NCBI GenBank assembly: GCA_964609765.1
Contig: CAZSSD010000001.1
Span: 45,282-109,281 of the forward strand
DNA length: 64,000 nucleotides
From: an uncultured Candidatus Saccharibacteria bacterium
Lineage (GTDB): Bacteria; Patescibacteriota; Doudnabacteria; UBA920; 2-02-FULL-46-11
Direction: 5' to 3'
Shown here: in pieces, positions 3 through 46,165 of the stretch
Position numbering within the stretch: the stretch's first letter is position 1
Layout: the number at the start of each line of letters is the position of its first letter
Translations under genes and position numbers: made by a program
The notes under the pieces: generated by a model
Told to the model about the DNA's origin: nothing
The model's input: the letters and a program-made list of their open reading frames with translations, nothing else
Databases searched by the model: none

Positions 3-722
3 AGCGCCGATGAATTCGAAGATTATTATGACCATTTGGTAAATTTTTGGGTCTGTTTGAACTCGTTTATTTATGAAATAAGCGATAGTGAGACGATTGA
101 TAAAGGTATACGAAATTGGCTCGGTGATTTCCGCAAAAAAACGGAAAAGCACACTGAAAAATTAAGCTCACTTTTGACTGATTTTCTAAGAACTCAATCA
201 ACCCTTAAAGAATTGGTTCATTTTATTACTAAAGATGAAGCAGTGGCCTTACTTCATGGCAAGATGGGCGATGTAGATAGATTAGAAATAACAAATAGGG
301 GGAAAGGCTGCTTTATGTTCAATGGCACTATTTATTTGTTAGACCAACTTGATGATGTTCTTAGCGAGCACAATCTATCTTTGGAAAATTTTAGCGCTAA
401 CGCCACTGAAATAAAGGGAAGCTCCGCTTTTTCTGGAGTCGTAAAGGGAAATGTAAAAGTTGTAGAAGGGTTTAACGATTTAAATAAAATAACAGCGGGC
501 GACATTCTTGTCACACAAATGACCTCACCGAAATATTTAGGAATTATGACAAAGGTTGGCGGGATAGTTACTGACCAAGGAGGCACGCTTTGCCATGCCG
601 CTATTACCGCACGAGAATTAAAAATTCCCTGCGTTATTGGCACTAAAATCGCTACGCAAGTATTAAGAGACGGAGATTTGGTGGAAGTGGATGCGGATAG
701 GGGGATAGTGAGAAAATTATGA
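3..722 (+). CDS. PEP-utilizing enzyme mobile (phosphohistidine swivel) domain protein, 5'-partial (reading frame open to window start; listed ORF starts at TTG 36)
   Basis: C-terminal motif ILVTQMTSPKYLG...VTDQGGTLCHAAITARELKIPCVIG matches the PEP-utilizers swivel domain with the catalytic His in GGxxxHAAI. The frame has no stop between nt 3 and 36. Confidence 0.7.
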   Translation, partial: SADEFEDYYDHLVNFWVCLNSFIYEISDSETIDKGIRNWLGDFRKKTEKHTEKLSSLLTDFLRTQSTLKELVHFITKDEAVALLHGKMGDVDRLEITNRGKGCFMFNGTIYLLDQLDDVLSEHNLSLENFSANATEIKGSSAFSGVVKGNVKVVEGFNDLNKITAGDILVTQMTSPKYLGIMTKVGGIVTDQGGTLCHAAITARELKIPCVIGTKIATQVLRDGDLVEVDADRGIVRKL

Positions 723-778
723 AAAGAAGATAACGGATTAACTATTCTTAAATTCTTAAGAACATTGGAATAGGTAAG

Positions 779-1882
779 ATGATAGATGATAAATTAAAGT
801 ATCAAAGAATTTTTCACGTGCCGGGTTTACGGCTTTTTATTGATGATATCTGGATGGATCATTATAAAAAGCTTGACGCAATGGTCACTTACCTAAATAA
901 CGAATATACCAGTTATTTACCTATAAATGTGATAAAGCGAACCAATAAGACCGGTCTGAAGCTTCTGAAAAGCGAAATCCAATTTAGGGGCTTCGTTAAA
1001 AACTTCGAAAATAACATGAAGCGAGTTGATGCTGCGTATAACACTATACAGCCTAAAAATATTTTAAAGAAGGCAGAAGTAGAAAATTTTTTAAAGCCTG
1101 CAGCTCGATTATTTTATTTTTACTCCAAGACCGAATTTTTCTATACCGATCTTGCCTATAAAAGATTTACCGAGACCAAAAACCCAAAACTTCAGAAAAA
1201 TTTAAAAGCAATGGGTGTCTTAAAGGAGGATGCCCGAAAACATTTAAACAAAATTTTCTTCGGCCAAAACGCTTACCTCAATGTTTTATTAAGAAAAATT
1301 TCGAGCCAGTTTAACGTGGATTTAAACAATTTATTACAATACAAGCAAAAAGAAATATTGGGTTTATTTGAAGGAAAATTGGTAAGCAGAACAGAAATTG
1401 CAAAACGAAATAAAGCCATTCTTTTGGTAGGTAAAAAAGGGACGCTATTTATAGAAACAGGTGCAAAGGCCGAAGCGGTAATAAAGAAATTTATTAAACA
1501 TAGAGAAACTGCACGGAGTTCGAGAAAATTACATGGTGTTGGCGTTAGCAAAGGGCTCGCCAGGGGCAGAGCCCGAGTAATAGTTTCGGGGTATGATAAT
1601 TTTGATCAGTTGAGAAAAATTATTTCGAGTATGAGAAAAGGCGATGTATTGGTAGCAGAAACTACATCACCGGAGCTTGCCGGTGCTTGCAAAAAGGCGG
1701 CTGCAATAGTCACTAATCAGGGCGGTCTGCTTTCCCACGCCGCCATTATCTCAAGAGAATTAAAAATTCCCTGCGTGGTTAATACTCAAAACGCTACTAG
1801 TTTAATTAAGAATGGTGATTTAGTGGAAGTTGACGGCAGTCGGGGACTCGTTACAATTATAAAAAGAAAGGTAAAGAGATAA
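779..1882 (+). CDS. PEP-utilizing enzyme mobile-domain protein (paralog 2); N-terminal ~250 aa of unknown fold
   Basis: ATG start. C-terminal VLVAETTSPELAGACKKAAAIVTNQGGLLSHAAIISRELKIPCVV is a swivel-domain signature. Confidence 0.7.
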   Translation: MIDDKLKYQRIFHVPGLRLFIDDIWMDHYKKLDAMVTYLNNEYTSYLPINVIKRTNKTGLKLLKSEIQFRGFVKNFENNMKRVDAAYNTIQPKNILKKAEVENFLKPAARLFYFYSKTEFFYTDLAYKRFTETKNPKLQKNLKAMGVLKEDARKHLNKIFFGQNAYLNVLLRKISSQFNVDLNNLLQYKQKEILGLFEGKLVSRTEIAKRNKAILLVGKKGTLFIETGAKAEAVIKKFIKHRETARSSRKLHGVGVSKGLARGRARVIVSGYDNFDQLRKIISSMRKGDVLVAETTSPELAGACKKAAAIVTNQGGLLSHAAIISRELKIPCVVNTQNATSLIKNGDLVEVDGSRGLVTIIKRKVKR

Positions 1883-1887
1883 ATATT

Positions 1888-2778
1888 ATGCCCAAACGTG
1901 AAGGTACGCCCCGAGACCCACATGAAAACAATCAAGATGAATCCGCTAAAGAGCCGTCTGATATTAGCTTATTCAGGCATAGCCTCTCTTCTTACCGAAC
2001 ATATCGAGATATCGCTGGCTCGGAAAACCCTTTGCGAGCCCTCGATCCAGAAAATCAACTCGGTCCAGATTTAACGGAAAAAGGTGCAGAATTTGCGAGA
2101 GAAGAGGCAGAAAAGTTTTTTGACGCGCTTGATCCAAAGCAAGATATTTTATTTTTTGCCTCCAGTAACGAACTGCGCGCGATCGAAACGACCAATATAT
2201 ATCGACAAGTGGCACACCAACGCGGTTTTGAAGTTATTAAGGTTGCCAACCCAAGAAGCGGACATGCCCTGGAAATAGGTAATGGCGAAATAAGAGTTGT
2301 AAAAAACTTATCGCTATACCCGAGAAATAAAAGTAATGTTGTTATTGATAGCGTTTTAGGTCCGCCCCATCAAAGACCGCCAATTAATTGGGAGGCGATT
2401 GCTGACCCTGAACTAAAGGCAAGGTACGAGCAAGCCGCAGCGATAATTGCTGCTGATGATCGCGGCTCCTTTGGCGCTAACCTGTTGGCCCACAGCGAAA
2501 AGATCAAAAAATTATTTCCAGAATTATCCTCGGCCACTGATCTGTATAGGCAATTTAAAAATATTGTTCGGTTAGTGCGTTTTGGCATTGAGAAAGCGCG
2601 AGCATCAGGACTTAAGAAAAGAGTGAAAATATTGGCGTTTGGCCATGAAAACTATTTGCTGCCTGCGCTTGAGGAATTATTCCAAGAAGAGGAGATCAGG
2701 AATTGTGAAATTATTGATTTTTCATTGAGAGAAGATAGTATTATGGCGCGCTTCAGAGGCAAAGATAGGGAAATCTAA
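1888..2778 (+). CDS. hypothetical protein (296 aa) embedded in the PEP-utilizer paralog array
   Basis: Long ORF with ATG start, tightly spaced with its neighbours. No motif recognised by eye. Confidence 0.5.
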   Translation: MPKREGTPRDPHENNQDESAKEPSDISLFRHSLSSYRTYRDIAGSENPLRALDPENQLGPDLTEKGAEFAREEAEKFFDALDPKQDILFFASSNELRAIETTNIYRQVAHQRGFEVIKVANPRSGHALEIGNGEIRVVKNLSLYPRNKSNVVIDSVLGPPHQRPPINWEAIADPELKARYEQAAAIIAADDRGSFGANLLAHSEKIKKLFPELSSATDLYRQFKNIVRLVRFGIEKARASGLKKRVKILAFGHENYLLPALEELFQEEEIRNCEIIDFSLREDSIMARFRGKDREI

Positions 2779-2793
2779 TATGGATACGTATTT

Positions 2794-4209
2794 ATGAAAA
2801 AAACAGAGTATGTGTTTTTATGGGGAAATACGCAAAGCTGCTTTACTTTTGAAGGCAATACAAATTGCTTGGTTAGATTTCCGGACAATCCTTGGAATAA
2901 AGCGCTGGAGGCGATGATAACGGTTGTTAAAGATAACAAAGCATCTTGTTATGTTTCTCAAAAAAGCATAGATAACAATATTAAGTTAGGTAGGCAGTTT
3001 TTAGATGCGAGATACGTAAAAATATTTCTCCAAAATATTCACCGTGTTACGGTCCGACATGATCGACTATTTAAGGAGTTAGACAAACTTAATTATAGAA
3101 GCCTCGGTGACGAAGAACTGCTAAATTATTTTATAAAAATATTAAATCAATGGTCAGATACCATTGGCTATTTTCGCGGTACGCAAATGGAGGGCACCCA
3201 AGTATTAGCTAATAAAATTAATAAATTAGTCGGGCCCGAAGAAGCGGCTACGCTGATTTTGCCAACAGACCTGGATCCGGTAAACCGGGAAGAAAAAGAT
3301 TGGCGAAAGCTACTCAAAAGGCCATTTAGTAAAAAAAGTATTTTTAATCATCTGCAAAAATACCCATGGCTTGTTCCTTATCACGTTGCGCTTGATCAGG
3401 CTTACCGGACTATGCAAGACCGCTACAAGCAAGGTAGGGGAGTCTTTGAGAATCGGGATATCAGAAAGGAAAAGGCCGATCTTAAAAGAAAACAGGGCGC
3501 AATATTTAAACAGTACCCTAACGCGGAAAGGCTGGTGAAGCTTATGCAGCAATTGGCTCTGGCCAGGATAAATCTGAAATCCTATTGGGGTGGCACCGAC
3601 TTTTATTTAATGCCTTTGTACGCAGAAATGGCCAGGCGCAGCGGTGAGCCGATAGCTGATATCTTTAACTATTATTTGATTGAAGAATTGAAAGCATTGT
3701 TGAATAGAAGAAAGCTGACAAGGGAAGAAAAGCAAAATCGAAAAAGATGCTTTGTATTTTTATGGAAAAAAGGGAAAATTATTATACGCTCTGGTGATGC
3801 GGCTGAAAAATTATCTAAGAAAGAGTTGGGAAGCCTAACCGAAACGGGAAACGCAAATGAGCTTAAGGGCTTTTGCGCCAATCCGGGTAAAATTACTGGC
3901 GTTGTCAGAATTTTTGAGGCCAATAATTATAAAAAAGCAAATGCTTTGCGTAAATCATTTGGAAGCGGCGAAGTATTGGTAACTCAAATGACTCAGCCAA
4001 ATATAGTTGATATTGCCAAAAAAGCGGTGGCCATTATTACTGACGAGGGCGGTATGCTTTCCCATGCCGCTATTATCTCAAGGGAGTTTGGCATTCCATG
4101 TGTGGTGGGGACCCATATTGCTACGCAAGTCTTAAAAGACGGCGATTTGGTGGAAGTTGACGCTAATAAAGGATTGGTTAAAATTTTGAAGCGGAAAAAT
4201 GCCAATTGA
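2794..4209 (+). CDS. PEP-utilizing enzyme mobile-domain protein (paralog 3)
   Basis: C-terminal VLVTQMTQPNIVDIAKKAVAIITDEGGMLSHAAIISREFGIPCVVG. Confidence 0.7.
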   Translation: MKKTEYVFLWGNTQSCFTFEGNTNCLVRFPDNPWNKALEAMITVVKDNKASCYVSQKSIDNNIKLGRQFLDARYVKIFLQNIHRVTVRHDRLFKELDKLNYRSLGDEELLNYFIKILNQWSDTIGYFRGTQMEGTQVLANKINKLVGPEEAATLILPTDLDPVNREEKDWRKLLKRPFSKKSIFNHLQKYPWLVPYHVALDQAYRTMQDRYKQGRGVFENRDIRKEKADLKRKQGAIFKQYPNAERLVKLMQQLALARINLKSYWGGTDFYLMPLYAEMARRSGEPIADIFNYYLIEELKALLNRRKLTREEKQNRKRCFVFLWKKGKIIIRSGDAAEKLSKKELGSLTETGNANELKGFCANPGKITGVVRIFEANNYKKANALRKSFGSGEVLVTQMTQPNIVDIAKKAVAIITDEGGMLSHAAIISREFGIPCVVGTHIATQVLKDGDLVEVDANKGLVKILKRKNAN

Positions 4210-5704
4210 TTTTAAAAAATGGCAGTTTGAATTTACGCAGCGCAACAGCCACCCTATTTTAATGGCTGATTTTTGGACGCGCGCCATGTATCATTACTTC
4301 CCCGAGGAAATAAAGTTACCTTTGGGGGGCCGTGATTACATATATACTGGGAAAAACAGTGGTTATGTAAAGAAAAATCAAAAGCAGGAGCTCTTAAAGA
4401 TACTTAAAAACGCCGTTTCAAGAGAGCCATATTTGCATTATGTTTATAAAAAGACACTGGCTCGGGTGGCGCAATTCGAAAAAGTTGCCGATGATATTTC
4501 TAAACAACTAAATGGCCAAATAAGCCAGAAGGACATTTTAAATTTTTGGTTAAGATTTGATGATCATTTTTGTAAGTTAATTCCGTGGTTTTTTATACCC
4601 TATTACATTACCGAAGAAAATTTTTTAGTTGATAAAATCAAACAAAGGCTGGAAAACTACAAAAAAGAGGTTGAGGAAATAACAGATTTTAACAACGCCT
4701 TGGCCATACTCGTTCAGCCCAGAATAAAAATGTATTTTCAGCAAGAGCAATATGACTTTTATAAATTGGTATCATATGCTGAAAAGTATAAAAATTTTGA
4801 AAAAGACAGAAAATTTACTGAACTAGCCAATAAGTATTTAGTTAAATATGGCTGGACCAGTACGTATCTAGTTCTGCCCTTGGTGCCACTATCACTAAAA
4901 GTGTTAATTAAACGAGTTCACGCCGCTCTAAAAAATAAATTTACGCGCCAGTATTTACTGCAAAGACAAACCGCGGTTAAAAACAAAAGAGTGGCAGCGA
5001 AATTGTTAAAATTATTGGCGCGCGATAAAGGGCTCCTAAAAAACATCAACTGGGCGCAAAAATATGCTTGGCTACTCACAGCCAGCGTAGAACGATCCCT
5101 TATCGCCACTTTTAAGCTGCAGAATTTTTACAGATTGATCAGCCTAGCCGCCGGCATTAAATATGCCGATTGGATTCATCTAACGTCTGTCGAAATTAAA
5201 CAGGCTCTGGCCGGAAGCCTAAAGATTTCCATGCAGGAAATTGCTAAAAGAAAAAGCGGATATTTTTATATTTTTGAAAATGGCAAGCCAAGCTTGTACA
5301 CTGGCGCTAAGGCCAGAGCGCTAACTAAGCAACTTGAACGTGCTACTGCGGCATTGCCAACAAAAACAGATCAAATAGTCGGCCAACCGGCCTCCCCGGG
5401 CCAGGTTACTGGCAGGGTCAGGATTTGCCGATCAGCCGCCGAGGCGGCCAAATTGGGGCCCGGTGAGATATTGGTGGCTGTTATGACGACTCCGGACTAT
5501 GTACCGGCCATGAAACAGGCTGCGGCTATTGTAACAGACGAGGGCGGCCTTTTATCCCACGCCGCCATTGTATCTAGAGAACTAGGCAAGCCTTGTATAG
5601 TTGGGACAAAAATAGCAACTAGGTTGCTAAAATATGGCGATATGGTGGAAGTTGATGCCGGGAGCGGTATCGTAAAATTATTGGGTCATACCCTAAAACG
5701 TTAG
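4199..5704 (+). CDS. PEP-utilizing enzyme mobile-domain protein (paralog 4)
   Basis: C-terminal ILVAVMTTPDYVPAMKQAAAIVTDEGGLLSHAAIVSRELGKPCIVG. Overlaps the previous gene by 11 nt, suggesting translational coupling. Confidence 0.7.
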   Translation: MPIDFKKWQFEFTQRNSHPILMADFWTRAMYHYFPEEIKLPLGGRDYIYTGKNSGYVKKNQKQELLKILKNAVSREPYLHYVYKKTLARVAQFEKVADDISKQLNGQISQKDILNFWLRFDDHFCKLIPWFFIPYYITEENFLVDKIKQRLENYKKEVEEITDFNNALAILVQPRIKMYFQQEQYDFYKLVSYAEKYKNFEKDRKFTELANKYLVKYGWTSTYLVLPLVPLSLKVLIKRVHAALKNKFTRQYLLQRQTAVKNKRVAAKLLKLLARDKGLLKNINWAQKYAWLLTASVERSLIATFKLQNFYRLISLAAGIKYADWIHLTSVEIKQALAGSLKISMQEIAKRKSGYFYIFENGKPSLYTGAKARALTKQLERATAALPTKTDQIVGQPASPGQVTGRVRICRSAAEAAKLGPGEILVAVMTTPDYVPAMKQAAAIVTDEGGLLSHAAIVSRELGKPCIVGTKIATRLLKYGDMVEVDAGSGIVKLLGHTLKR

Positions 5705-6889: not shown

Positions 6890-7654
6890 TGTGGATGACA
6901 CGACAACTGTTTTGGGTGTAGGATTTATTTATCAGCGCGAAGTTAGCGCTAAAGGACCGGGCCCGATAACGGGCTTGGAGGTAGGCACGAGTGCCAACGC
7001 TTAGGGTGTCCTGCCGCGAGTCTTCCGGCAGGCCAAGCGGCGACCGCGTGCCGAAGGTGTGAGAGCGGGGGAGCATGGCGCTAAACCGCCAAAGAAGTTT
7101 CCCCGGCAGCCAGTCTGGCCCTCCGGGCGGATTAGACACCCGCCAGCAGTCGGGGGTACACCAGCCACACCCGCCTGGACCTTAGCCCAGCTATTCTGGT
7201 GTTTGCACCAACCAAGGGCTTGCGTCTGCCTTGGCACCAGAAGAGAACCGTGCAGGCCGCCATCCCGCCGCAGGGGCTTTGACAAATACTGCGTAGCGGC
7301 TGCGCTGGAGAAGGTCCGAAGTGCTCAAGCAGTTGTTTTATATAAATGGCGGCTGACCACCCCACGGACAGATGCACGCATCTGATCCGCGAGGTAGGTC
7401 GCCGCCACCGGCTTGCCGCCAAATTCTGGGTTAGGTATTTTCCTCCCCGGGGAGACGCCGACATTCAGGGTTCGCGCAAGGGGCACCAGGAATCCCGCCG
7501 AGCGCACTTGCTTGGTCCTGGCGCTGGCAGCAAGTCGGGTCGTATTTCGAAGCAGGGCTAAGGAGGAAGGCTCGATGTTGTGAGCGAGCGGTGTGTTCGC
7601 GTGTCCAAGGTGCCCGGCGGGCATCACAAACTACGCGGACCCGTATACTCCTTA
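6890..7654 (+). ncRNA. GC-rich structured ncRNA locus, candidate RNase P RNA (rnpB)-like, possibly two RNAs
   Basis: About 770 nt that is much more GC-rich than its flanks. It has only overlapping junk ORFs on both strands and is bounded by terminators. It contains CTAAAGGACCGGGCCCG (resembles RNase P CR-I GGAAAGUCCGGGCUCC), GAGTGCCAACGCTTAGGG (resembles the P15 GUGCCAGGUAACGCCUGGG) and GGTGTGAGAGCGGG (resembles GGUAAGAGCG). Confidence 0.35.
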
Positions 7655-7691
7655 GCCCTGCTTCTATCGGAAGCAGGGCGATTTCTTTTTT
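7655..7691 (+). terminator. rho-independent terminator (CCCTGCTTC-tatcg-GAAGCAGGG plus T-tract)
   Basis: 9-bp stem followed by CGATTTCTTTTTTT on the + strand. Confidence 0.65.
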
Positions 7692-26291: not shown

Positions 26292-26315
26292 TTCCGAAAA
26301 AAAGCACTTAATTTC

Positions 26316-26344
26316 AACCACCAAGAGCCGGTGGTTGTTTTAGT
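26316..26344 (+). terminator. rplU terminator (CAACCACC-aagagcc-GGTGGTTG plus TTTTAG)
   Basis: 8-bp stem followed by a T-run. Confidence 0.6.
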
Positions 26345-26345
26345 A

Positions 26346-26373
26346 TTGACTATTTCTTTTAATGTTGTAAAAT
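26346..26373 (+). promoter_or_regulatory. sigma70-like promoter TTGACT-16 nt-TAAAAT driving the downstream ncRNA/tRNA region
   Basis: Near-consensus boxes immediately after the rplU terminator. Confidence 0.5.
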
Positions 26374-26382
26374 ATGATACAC

Positions 26383-26905
26383 GGACATTAAGTTCTGGTT
26401 TGGGTAGCCTTAACGTCTAAGTCCAACTAGCGGACTCGCACGGAGGATCGGCCGATCTACCATGGCCTCCGTATGGAAAGCTTGAGGACCCTTAGGTGTT
26501 AACCCACTCCCAACTAACGTCAGCCAGGCCTGCTCACCTCGTTCCGATCGCAAGGTGCGTGGTAAGCGGGTTCTGCAGTTAGGGCGGAGCGCGGAGTACG
26601 AGGCGCGAAACCGGGGAAGAACCAAATCTTGGGCGGGAAACAAACCAAACTCGTCGCTGTGGGAGGTTTGCGATCAAACAAGAAATGGTTCAACGTTGGC
26701 GTAGCCCACAGCCGGTAACCAGTCTTTTGGGGGGACTGGGGATGGCGGCAGGCGTTGGTAAAGCGAGCAGTGCTGGAACGGAGAGATGCTGAATGGGTTC
26801 GGGAGTTGTTCGCCACTAGTGTGCGGCAACTTACCTTGAGCGGCTCGGTCGATCCGGTAGGGCATTGTAAGGTTTGCGAATTGCTTGCGTGGAGCCCAAA
26901 CCAGA
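26383..26905 (+). ncRNA. unclassified GC-rich structured ncRNA candidate (~520 nt)
   Basis: Promoter-proximal, GC-rich, and carries only overlapping junk ORFs on both strands. Many local helices. Weak CR-IV/CR-V-like strings (GGTGCGTGGTAAGCGGG; CACAGCCGGTAACC). Confidence 0.3.
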
Positions 26906-26909
26906 TATT

Positions 26910-27015
26910 GGGGCTGGACCTCGGGTGTGAGGCACGGGGGAATTCATCCTCCCCCCGTGGCGCTGTTCGCGGTCTTTGCTCGCGACAGGGTCGGGTTCGA
27001 TTCCCGTCAGCTCCA
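26910..27015 (+). ncRNA. atypical 106-nt tRNA-like element with a tmRNA/tRNA-Ala-type acceptor stem
   Basis: 5' GGGGCTG and 3' CAGCTCC-A acceptor strands with a G3:U70 pair. T-arm CGGG-TTCGATT-CCCG. 4-nt D-loop (CCTCG-GGTG-TGAGG). An 8-bp hairpin CACGGGGG/CCCCCGTG with an 11-nt loop containing UUCAU. A long extra arm (CTGTTCGCG...CGCGACAG). Confidence 0.4.
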
Positions 27016-27017
27016 TT

Positions 27018-27110
27018 GGAGAGGTAGCCAAGCGGCCAAAGGCGCCGGGGTGTTACTCCGGTGATCGGGTCAATACCTGGTCTGCGTGGGTTCGAATCCC
27101 ACCCTCTCCA
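27018..27110 (+). tRNA. class II (long variable arm) tRNA, Tyr/Ser-like D-arm; the anticodon loop reads gUGUUAc (apparent GUU)
   Basis: Acceptor GGAGAGG/CCTCTCC plus discriminator A. D-arm GCC-AAGCGGCCAAA-GGC. Anticodon stem CCGGG/TCCGG. 24-nt variable arm. T-arm GTGGG-TTCGAAT-CCCAC. No encoded CCA. Confidence 0.75.
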
Positions 27111-27285
27111 TGAAGTACTGGGCAGTGGTCTCCCTTCCGTTGCCTAGAGTTGGAGGAGTAATTCCTTTTCGGAGCGCAGTGCCTCGCGTGGTGACGGGTG
27201 AAACCCGGGACTCCCAAGCCTAGAGCTTGGGAATAATACCGGGGAGTAAGTCCCGATCCAGCGAGCCTGCCCCTCCGGGCACAAA

Positions 27286-27330
27286 AAGCCGTAGCGTTGC
27301 ATGAAACACGCTACGGCTTTACCTTTTATT
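27286..27330. terminator. bidirectional terminator hairpin (AAGCCGTAGCGT...ACGCTACGGCTT) between the tRNA region and recR
   Basis: 12-bp stem with an A-run on one side and a T-run on the other. Confidence 0.55.
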
Positions 27331-27341
27331 GGTGGGTTTTA

Positions 27342-46091: not shown

Positions 46092-46165
46092 TCCGGGATC
46101 GTCTAACGGCAGGACACCACCCTTTGGAGGTGGGTATCTTGGTTCGAATCCAAGTCCCGGAACCA
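46092..46165 (+). tRNA. tRNA-Gln (anticodon UUG), CCA encoded
   Basis: Acceptor TCCGGGA/TCCCGGA. D-arm GTCT-AACGGCA-GGAC. Anticodon stem CCACC/GGTGG with loop CTTTGGA. T-arm CTTGG-TTCGAAT-CCAAG. Discriminator A plus CCA. Confidence 0.8.

Follow-up and report, generated by a model that had tools for sequence, protein, structure and literature searches.

A conserved tRNA-like gene with an alanine-type acceptor in the recR-rplU spacer of a probable Patescibacteria genome

The tRNA-like element in the recR-rplU spacer

The stretch of DNA analyzed here (the window, 64 kilobases [kb] long) comes from a genome that, judged by its genes, is probably a member of the Patescibacteria (candidate phyla radiation, CPR). 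The gene content of the window is typical of that group, and the best named relatives of its RecR and L21 proteins are Berkelbacteria, Doudnabacteria, and Wolfebacteria, at 55-61% identity. A gene-free spacer of 1050 nucleotides (nt), positions 26292-27341, is bordered by rplU on the plus strand on one side and by convergent recR-dnaB-cysS on the other; its GC content is 55%, compared to about 48% for the genome. The subject of this report is a tRNA-like element within this spacer, at 26910-27015 on the plus strand (the copy designated W), which has an alanine-type acceptor and an orthologue in one relative. We conclude with high confidence that this tRNA-like gene is real and conserved, and its structural description is firm.

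The cloverleaf was both the minimum free energy (MFE) fold and the centroid fold of the element, at -55 kcal/mol (z = -2.97), and 1 of 200 shuffled sequences was as stable. The minus strand folded more weakly by 9 kcal/mol, in W and in the orthologue alike, a strand bias that four G.U pairs lead one to expect. A search pattern made of the two acceptor strands and the T-loop had a single match in the window and none in 100 shuffles. The acceptor stem comprises 8 base pairs (bp), GGGGCUGG/UCAGCUCC, including G3:U70 and a G8.U pair. The D-stem is 4-5 bp long (5 bp in the fold of W) and carries the tetraloop GGUG, the D-arm abuts the anticodon-like arm with zero linker nucleotides, and the T-stem is 4 bp with the canonical loop UUCGAUU. 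A first-pass annotation of this DNA had described the G3:U70 pair within 7-bp GGGGCUG/CAGCUCC acceptor strands, a discriminator A, the T-arm CGGG-UUCGAUU-CCCG, a 4-nt D-loop, and a very long extra arm, and all of these were present, the variable arm occupying approximately 30 nt. The same annotation gave the anticodon hairpin an 8-bp stem and an 11-nt loop containing UUCAU. The hairpin and the UUCAU motif were retained in our analysis, but comparison with the orthologue favored a longer stem of 9-10 bp and a 7-nt loop, UUCAUCC. This loop has U33 and carries C at both 37 and 38; tRNAs normally have a purine at 37.

The full set of alanine acceptor identity elements is present, namely G1:C72, G2:C71, G3:U70, G4:C69, and A73. 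The acceptor strands are also identical to those of Escherichia coli ssrA, the gene for transfer-messenger RNA (tmRNA), a likeness claimed by the first-pass annotation and borne out when we compared the element with the fetched gene. The first six acceptor pairs and A73 match those of E. coli tRNA-Ala as well. In contrast to a canonical tRNA-Ala, the element is 106 nt long and type-II-like, has an 8/4 geometry (an 8-bp acceptor stem on a 4-bp T-stem), has no NGC anticodon, and falls below the Rfam tRNA threshold. Position 8 is G or A in the two copies and never the near-universal U8. Of the three identities suggested in the first-pass annotation (an alanylatable tRNA-like RNA, a degenerate or novel ssrA, and an unusual tRNA for selenocysteine [tRNA-Sec] or suppressor), the first agrees best with these data.

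Conservation and RNA class

The orthologue is located at L127:1555-1655 on the minus strand, in the same recR-rplU spacer of an organism (contigs L127, L128, and L129) whose RecR and L21 are 74% and 79% identical to those of the window. We built a covariance model, R1, from W alone and ran it on about 1.4 Mb of fetched loci. W itself scored 132.6 bits and the orthologue 77.7 bits (E about 1e-14), and nothing besides the orthologue exceeded 33 bits in these loci. When folded alone, the orthologue formed the same cloverleaf as W. The two copies are 79% identical, whereas the leader RNA encoded immediately upstream is 46% identical overall, and the element is the best conserved segment of the spacer. 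In a model-guided alignment of the two copies, standard pairs occupied 98.6% of the pair cells over 36 pairs, compared to 46-53% in slid controls. All helices are maintained despite 6 substitutions and several insertions or deletions; the helix changes were 2 compensatory ones, both in the anticodon stem, and 4 one-sided ones.

The acceptor/T branch is the best conserved part of the element. Between W and L127 there is no change in the loop UUCAUCC, in A9, in either acceptor strand, or in the D-loop GG. The anticodon-like stem that closes this loop has 9 bp in L127 and 10 bp in W, the latter including one A.C mismatch followed by an A-U pair, so its length is not conserved. The outer half of the variable arm differs in sequence in L127 and keeps its pairing and its bulge. 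At the 8th acceptor pair, W has G.U and L127 has A-U, and a U.U flanks the 4-bp T-stem in both copies. This pair change, the conserved U.U, and the absence of U8 together indicate an 8/4 geometry rather than the 8/5-like geometry described in the first-pass annotation.

These comparisons bear on the idea that the element is a decaying tRNA pseudogene or a functionless chance fold. Standard tRNA finders miss the element, most relatives are without it, and it sits in a fast-evolving spacer, as that idea would have it. However, a pseudogene would not be expected to be the best conserved part of its spacer, to keep every helix through the substitutions and indels found in L127, or to be accompanied by a conserved promoter and a strand-specific fold. 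The first-pass annotation had itself named a pseudo-tRNA among the outcomes that would undo its proposal; the failure of standard detectors agrees with that outcome, but the conservation in L127 does not, and we consider it to have a small chance of being correct.

Neither ordinary nor interrupted tRNA models described the element. ARAGORN called only the neighboring tRNA and a tRNA-Gln in the window, and did not call the element at default settings, with -ps85, or with introns allowed. Rfam at gathering thresholds reported nothing at the element. At E<=10 only partial minihelix matches appeared there, including a weak mascRNA match of 19.7 bits that reflects the minihelix alone, and RF00005 gave no match even at this threshold. 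In bacteria, introns in tRNA genes are of the group I type and at least 200 nt long. The first-pass annotation also mentioned an intron-bearing ordinary tRNA, which is not consistent with the continuous arms of the element and the lack of a call in the introns-allowed run. Divergent group I introns that split tRNA genes have been described in Patescibacteria (PMC13011429). The leader was considered as such an intron and rejected, as an AT-rich promoter and no tRNA 5' half lies upstream and RF00028 gave no match at E<=5.

The first-pass annotation also considered a degenerate or novel ssrA, that is, a tmRNA reduced to its tRNA-like domain and acting in ribosome rescue with SmpB. Such a reduction has reportedly been proposed for some jakobid mitochondrial tmRNAs. 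The acceptor strands of the element equal those of E. coli ssrA, G3:U70 and A73 give it alanine identity, its T-arm with the UUCGAUU loop and its 3' end are tmRNA-like, and, like tmRNA, it would mature from a precursor. In addition, the leader holds a conserved UAG, preceded by LA or VA, within a conserved hairpin upstream of the tRNA-like domain, although not at the tag position of a tmRNA. In contrast, ARAGORN called no tmRNA in the window by default or with relaxed settings, with E. coli ssrA detected as the positive control, and Rfam made no tmRNA family call, the tmRNA models scoring 9-12 bits on the T-arm and the permuted model 12.5 bits. All 77 nt that separate the 5' acceptor strand from the T-arm belong to the D, anticodon, and variable hairpins, in keeping with the earlier remark that there is no mRNA domain. 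The P2 helix, pseudoknots, and tag reading frame of tmRNA are absent, the T-stem has 4 bp rather than the 5 bp of tmRNA, and the long anticodon arm of the full cloverleaf fills the place that SmpB and the P2 helix have in tmRNA. The leader UAG was rejected as the end of a tag because of its position and the lack of tmRNA architecture, and a permuted tmRNA gene was rejected because the downstream sequence is a complete tRNA and not a coding piece. No smpB was found in our protein survey, which covered 40 open reading frames (ORFs) within the window, and the element is missing in close relatives. A minimal ssrA is, in our view, highly improbable.

The third suggestion, an unusual tRNA-Sec or opal suppressor, draws on the 8-bp acceptor, the 4-nt D-loop, the long variable arm, the extended anticodon stem, and the UUCA within the loop. 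RF01852, the tRNA-Sec model, matched the element only in part, at 16.2 bits compared to its gathering score of 47 bits. The acceptor branch is 12 bp (8/4) and not the 13 bp (8/5) of tRNA-Sec, the discriminator is A73 and not G73, and CAU rather than UCA occupies positions 34-36, where UCA would need a shifted loop register. None of selA, selB, and selD was found among the surveyed ORFs. The probability of this identity is close to negligible, and we conclude with high confidence that the element is neither ssrA nor selC.

On the basis of sequence and fold, we assign the element with high confidence to the allo-tRNAs or irregular tRNAs as a variant form, the closest known kind being the 8/4 allo-tRNAs with G3:U70, a likeness that the first-pass annotation missed together with the surrounding non-coding transcription unit. 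Allo-tRNAs have a 12-bp acceptor branch, either 8/4 or 9/3, and a tRNA-Sec-like D-arm with a tetraloop (Mukai 2017, NAR, PMC5389517). Their variable arms are long, their anticodon stems are lengthened, their anticodons are unrelated to their identity, and they often lie within polycistrons of irregular tRNAs; they accept serine, or alanine when they carry G3:U70, and a subset with this pair inserted alanine in E. coli (PMC5389517). The element shares with them a 12-bp 8/4 branch, a D tetraloop, an irregular tRNA as neighbor, and a long variable arm along with lengthening of the anticodon stem; its anticodon is likewise non-cognate, and standard finders likewise miss it. It differs in that its anticodon stem has 9-10 bp compared to approximately 6 bp in allo-tRNAs, it carries C37, its discriminator is A73 where allo-tRNAs mostly have G73 or U73, its variable arm is much longer (10-12 bp, bulged), and a single linker nucleotide is present. 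The known hosts are Acidobacteria, Clostridia, and Proteobacteria, whereas the host of the element is Patescibacteria-like. Also in contrast to allo-tRNAs, the element is fused downstream of a 510-nt structured RNA and has no toxin-antitoxin genes nearby.

The surrounding non-coding transcription unit

The features of the spacer are listed in Table 1. They look like an independently transcribed non-coding operon of about 950 nt, the first product of which would be a stable RNA of approximately 510 nt with paired ends. The promoter hexamers and their spacing are the same in the L127 unit. We compared the leaders of W and L127 with RNAalifold and by single-sequence folds. The closing helix of the leader showed two compensatory changes between W and L127 in RNAalifold and ends 4 nt before G1 of the element, and each leader folded alone showed the same closure. 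A block at 26650-26717 is also conserved, with a stem GCUGUGG/CCACAGC around a variable hairpin. We searched for a cis-pairing partner of the loop UUCAUCC in the leader and trailer and found none.

Table 1. Positions of the element, its parts, and the other features of the spacer (window coordinates unless a contig is named).
Feature	Position	Strand	Remarks
rplU terminator hairpin	26315-26337		
Sigma-70-type promoter	26346-26373	+	TTGACT-16 nt-TAAAAT; 10/12 matches in scan
Structured leader RNA	26380-26909	+	~510-530 nt; from folds and RNAalifold
Leader closing helix, 11 bp	26394-26404 with 26895-26905		UCUGGUUUGGG with CCCAAACCAGA
tRNA-like element	26910-27015	+	106 nt; no CCA encoded
Acceptor 5' strand	26910-26917	+	GGGGCUG(G)
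Linker A9	26918	+	Single nucleotide
D-arm	26919-26932	+	
Anticodon-like arm	26933-26959	+	Loop UUCAUCC at 26943-26949
Variable arm	26960-26991	+	32 nt, bulged U
T-arm	26992-27006	+	CGGG-UUCGAUU-CCCG
Acceptor 3' strand	27007-27014	+	(U)CAGCUCC
Discriminator A73	27015	+	
Irregular type-II tRNA, 93 nt	27018-27110	+	7/5, A73, loop GUGUUAC (GUU), no CCA encoded
Structured trailer RNA	27111-27283	+	No Rfam family
Terminator hairpin and tail	27285-27330	+	AAAGCCGUAGCGU...ACGCUACGGCUUU then U-rich tail; hairpin 27285-27320
Leader orthologue	L127:1656-2175	-	

The leader, with a GC content of 55%, is a candidate for a new large non-coding RNA. The leader and trailer matched no Rfam family at E<=5, and RNase P RNA, 6S, SRP, ROOL, and GOLLD were rejected as identities of the leader on this result; P4-like motifs in the leader are not conserved in L127. 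A protein-coding spacer was also rejected, since tblastx detected no frame-specific (coding) conservation and W lacks an equivalent of a 172-amino-acid ORF called in L127. At window positions ~6890-7690, genes for an M50 peptidase and proS are separated by another gene-free stretch, about 1 kb long and also with 55% GC. It is bounded by terminator-like hairpins and may be another large structured RNA; Rfam gave no meaningful match to it at E<=5, and it is not similar to the leader.

Downstream of the element, after a UU dinucleotide, lies a tRNA that ARAGORN labeled tRNA-Asn(gtt) and that scored 54.2 bits with the Rfam tRNA model. It has a long variable arm and a D-loop like those of Tyr and Ser tRNAs, and G32 can pair with C38 in its MFE fold. 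Type-II bodies normally belong to Leu, Ser, or Tyr tRNAs, and a type-II tRNA with a GUU anticodon is therefore irregular, possibly mis-decoding or inactive. The L127 unit is without this tRNA. The region 27111-27330, which follows it, folds with z = -4.97 and none of 200 shuffles was as stable, and conservation of the trailer in L127 was not obvious. The terminator lies 12 nt from the stop codon of the convergent recR and is possibly bidirectional.

Other genomes were reached by synteny, through RecR homologues (71-76% identical) and L21 homologues in the arrangement cysS-dnaB-recR / rplU-GT4-GT2. By this route only the L127 organism carried the element, which was not found in the recR-rplU loci L123, L125, L130, L226, L227, and L228-230. 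The spacers of L123, L125, L130, L226, and L227, whose organisms are as closely related as that of L127, hold different, non-homologous GC-rich RNAs, with leaders that are not detectably homologous, and no neighboring protein co-varied with the presence of the element. The spacer of L123 contains a normal tRNA-Thr(UGU). At the equivalent position in L226 (3068-3166, minus strand), a tRNA-like unit of 99 nt has a 5-bp T-arm and an acceptor of 7 bp (G1-C, G2.U, A3-U), and one long irregular hairpin replaces its D, anticodon, and variable arms. L227, with a RecR 73% identical, has a 72-nt tRNA at ~1166-1238 on the minus strand whose acceptor is Gly-like (GCGGGCG...U73) and whose anticodon loop reads ACUCAGG (UCA, C33). 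ARAGORN labeled it tRNA-SeC, and in its body it shares 73% identity with the L123 tRNA-Thr(UGU).

Pattern searches were made as well. With GGGGC..GGTTCRAWTCC.....GCTCCA there was no homologue among the matches listed from genome contigs, which does not demonstrate absence; these matches were mostly ordinary tRNA-Ala genes with a chance upstream GGGGC. In metagenome contigs the pattern combined with TTCAT gave 90 matches, all in tRNA-Ala context or unrelated and none a homologue. Viral contigs gave 0 matches, and BLAST against phages and plasmids returned nothing relevant. Several oddities with Ala-type acceptors (L080, L116, L122, L151, and L160) were rejected as homologues, with R1 scores of 33 bits or less; those checked sit within 23S rRNA, a normal tmRNA, or a normal tRNA-Leu. 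One of them, L080:7204-7295 (-), is a 92-nt tRNA-like fold with an Ala acceptor within the 23S rRNA gene of a Minisyncoccia metagenome-assembled genome (MAG). Two other irregular forms were noted during this work. A 113-nt "mini tmRNA" in a Bacteroidetes MAG, L019:2161-2273 (+), has a tmRNA 5' start joined directly to a 3' end. A recurring element of ~130 nt in metagenome contigs L140, L161, L163, L187, and L189 has the Ala-type 5' acceptor strand GGGGCUC, then a conserved, GC-rich segment of ~60 nt where a D-arm would be, then the 3' half of a tRNA-Ala(GGC), and may be another irregular or interrupted tRNA-Ala.

The position of the element directly 3' of a long structured non-coding RNA resembles that of mascRNA and menRNA at MALAT1 and NEAT1 (PMC8457004), and RNase P cleavage would likewise form the 3' end of the upstream RNA. 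The eukaryotic mascRNA differs in having neither an aminoacylation identity nor a full anticodon arm (PMC8457004). Based on this likeness, the element could be purely a processing handle, its tRNA shape defining the 3' end of the 510-nt RNA through RNase P and RNase Z and the excised piece having no function. The closing helix that stops 4 nt before G1 and the strong conservation of the acceptor/T branch favor a handle, and the other tRNA-shaped modules at the same spacer (L123, L226, and L227) suggest that any RNase P substrate may do. However, conservation extends to four features that RNase P can do without, namely the loop (7/7), A9, the D-loop GG, and the alanine identity pair, and the element is better conserved than the leader it would serve (79% compared to 46%). 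In addition, the lack of detectable homology among the leaders of the relatives leaves the notion of the same RNA with different handles unsupported. We regard the pure handle as possible but unlikely.

Processing, charging, and possible role

We propose that the element is a functional, non-canonical 8/4 gene of the allo-tRNA type, the product of which is processed, charged with alanine, non-decoding, and active off the ribosome, and we give this proposal as a whole an even chance. A precursor of ~950 nt would be transcribed from the conserved sigma-70 promoter and would contain, in order, the ~510-nt RNA, the element, the tRNA(GUU), the trailer, and the terminator. RNase P would cut at G26910, freeing an upstream RNA whose ends are paired and whose 3' end overhangs by 4 nt. 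The tRNA-like RNA would be completed by 3' trimming and by the CCA-adding enzyme, and alanyl-tRNA synthetase (AlaRS) would charge it with alanine through G3:U70 and A73. For RNase P cleavage, 3' trimming, and CCA addition, a 12-bp acceptor/T stack with its elbow is sufficient. AlaRS recognizes only the acceptor helix, and minihelices with G3:U70 are charged by it. Excision and alanylation are thus likely, because the acceptor/T stack, the elbow (T-loop UUCGAUU and D-loop GG), and the acceptor helix are intact. In such scaffolds, a bulge in the variable-arm stem blocks seryl-tRNA synthetase (SerRS) (PMC5389517, PMC7590224), and G3:U70 with A73 makes them acceptable for alanine (PMC7590224, Mukai). 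Charging by SerRS would be disfavored here because of the variable-arm bulge and A73. Since the loop and the identity pair are invariant, the excised RNA appears to be more than a mark for cleavage. The RNA is unlikely to decode, given that its anticodon arm has an excess of 3-4 bp and is not equally long in the two orthologues, and that a pyrimidine occupies position 37. Off the ribosome, the RNA could be a non-translational alanyl carrier, a regulatory decoy or regulator, or a processing handle for the upstream RNA. We infer this scheme of processing, charging, and exclusion from decoding with moderate confidence; the structure, conservation, strand, and context of the element and the negative class tests were observed directly.

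A decoding allo-tRNA is the other functional possibility. The element would then be charged with alanine (or with methionine, through CAU and A73) and would read AUG, serving as a tRNA for missense, regulatory, or special purposes. A 12-bp 8/4 branch suits EF-Tu, and allo-tRNAs of this geometry are active in translation in E. coli (PMC5389517). Furthermore, the 7-nt loop with U33 and CAU is conserved, and the T-loop and the D-loop GG permit a normal elbow. However, the anticodon stems of known decoding tRNAs have 5-6 bp (review PMC7609411) compared to 9-10 bp here, the arm is unequal in length between W and L127, C37 and C38 are present where a purine is usual at 37, and many irregular allo-tRNAs are translationally inactive (Mukai). 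We consider a decoding role quite improbable.

Several observations weigh against the proposed non-decoding, alanine-charged RNA. A pure off-ribosome alanine carrier would not account for an anticodon-like loop that is so strictly conserved. The covariation is statistically weak because the element occurs in two lineages only; a shuffle control reached the observed covariation in 118 of 500 trials, which is not significant, and the case therefore rests on helix maintenance and relative conservation. Close relatives with identical flanking genes (L123, L125, L130, and L226) are without the element, which is thus dispensable or replaceable. The element has no encoded CCA, unlike the ordinary tRNA-Gln(UUG) at 46092-46165 (+), the one ordinary tRNA gene checked. 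No partner protein was evident among the 40 ORFs.

Irregular tRNAs, including the allo-tRNAs, are known from few phyla. The element would extend their range to the Patescibacteria, where genomes are reduced and retained genes tend to matter. This variant would combine an unambiguous alanine identity, an anticodon arm of a length that does not permit decoding, and physical linkage to a new large RNA, and so offers a concrete system in which to ask whether such RNAs are charged and what role they have off the ribosome. A more far-reaching suggestion, which we think is doubtful, is that a clade of Patescibacteria has a dedicated alanine-accepting, non-decoding tRNA-like RNA that is matured by RNase P from the 3' end of an undescribed structured RNA of ~510 nt. 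If so, bacteria would have an equivalent of the MALAT1-mascRNA arrangement, and the small RNA would be an off-ribosome alanyl donor, a regulator, or a new rescue factor. Standard annotation overlooks both tRNA-shaped genes and ~1-kb non-coding units in CPR genomes.

One further observation concerns the beginning of the window. Four consecutive genes at 36-5704 (+) each end in a phosphoenolpyruvate (PEP)-utilising-enzyme mobile domain (PF00391), and their N-terminal parts are unannotated.

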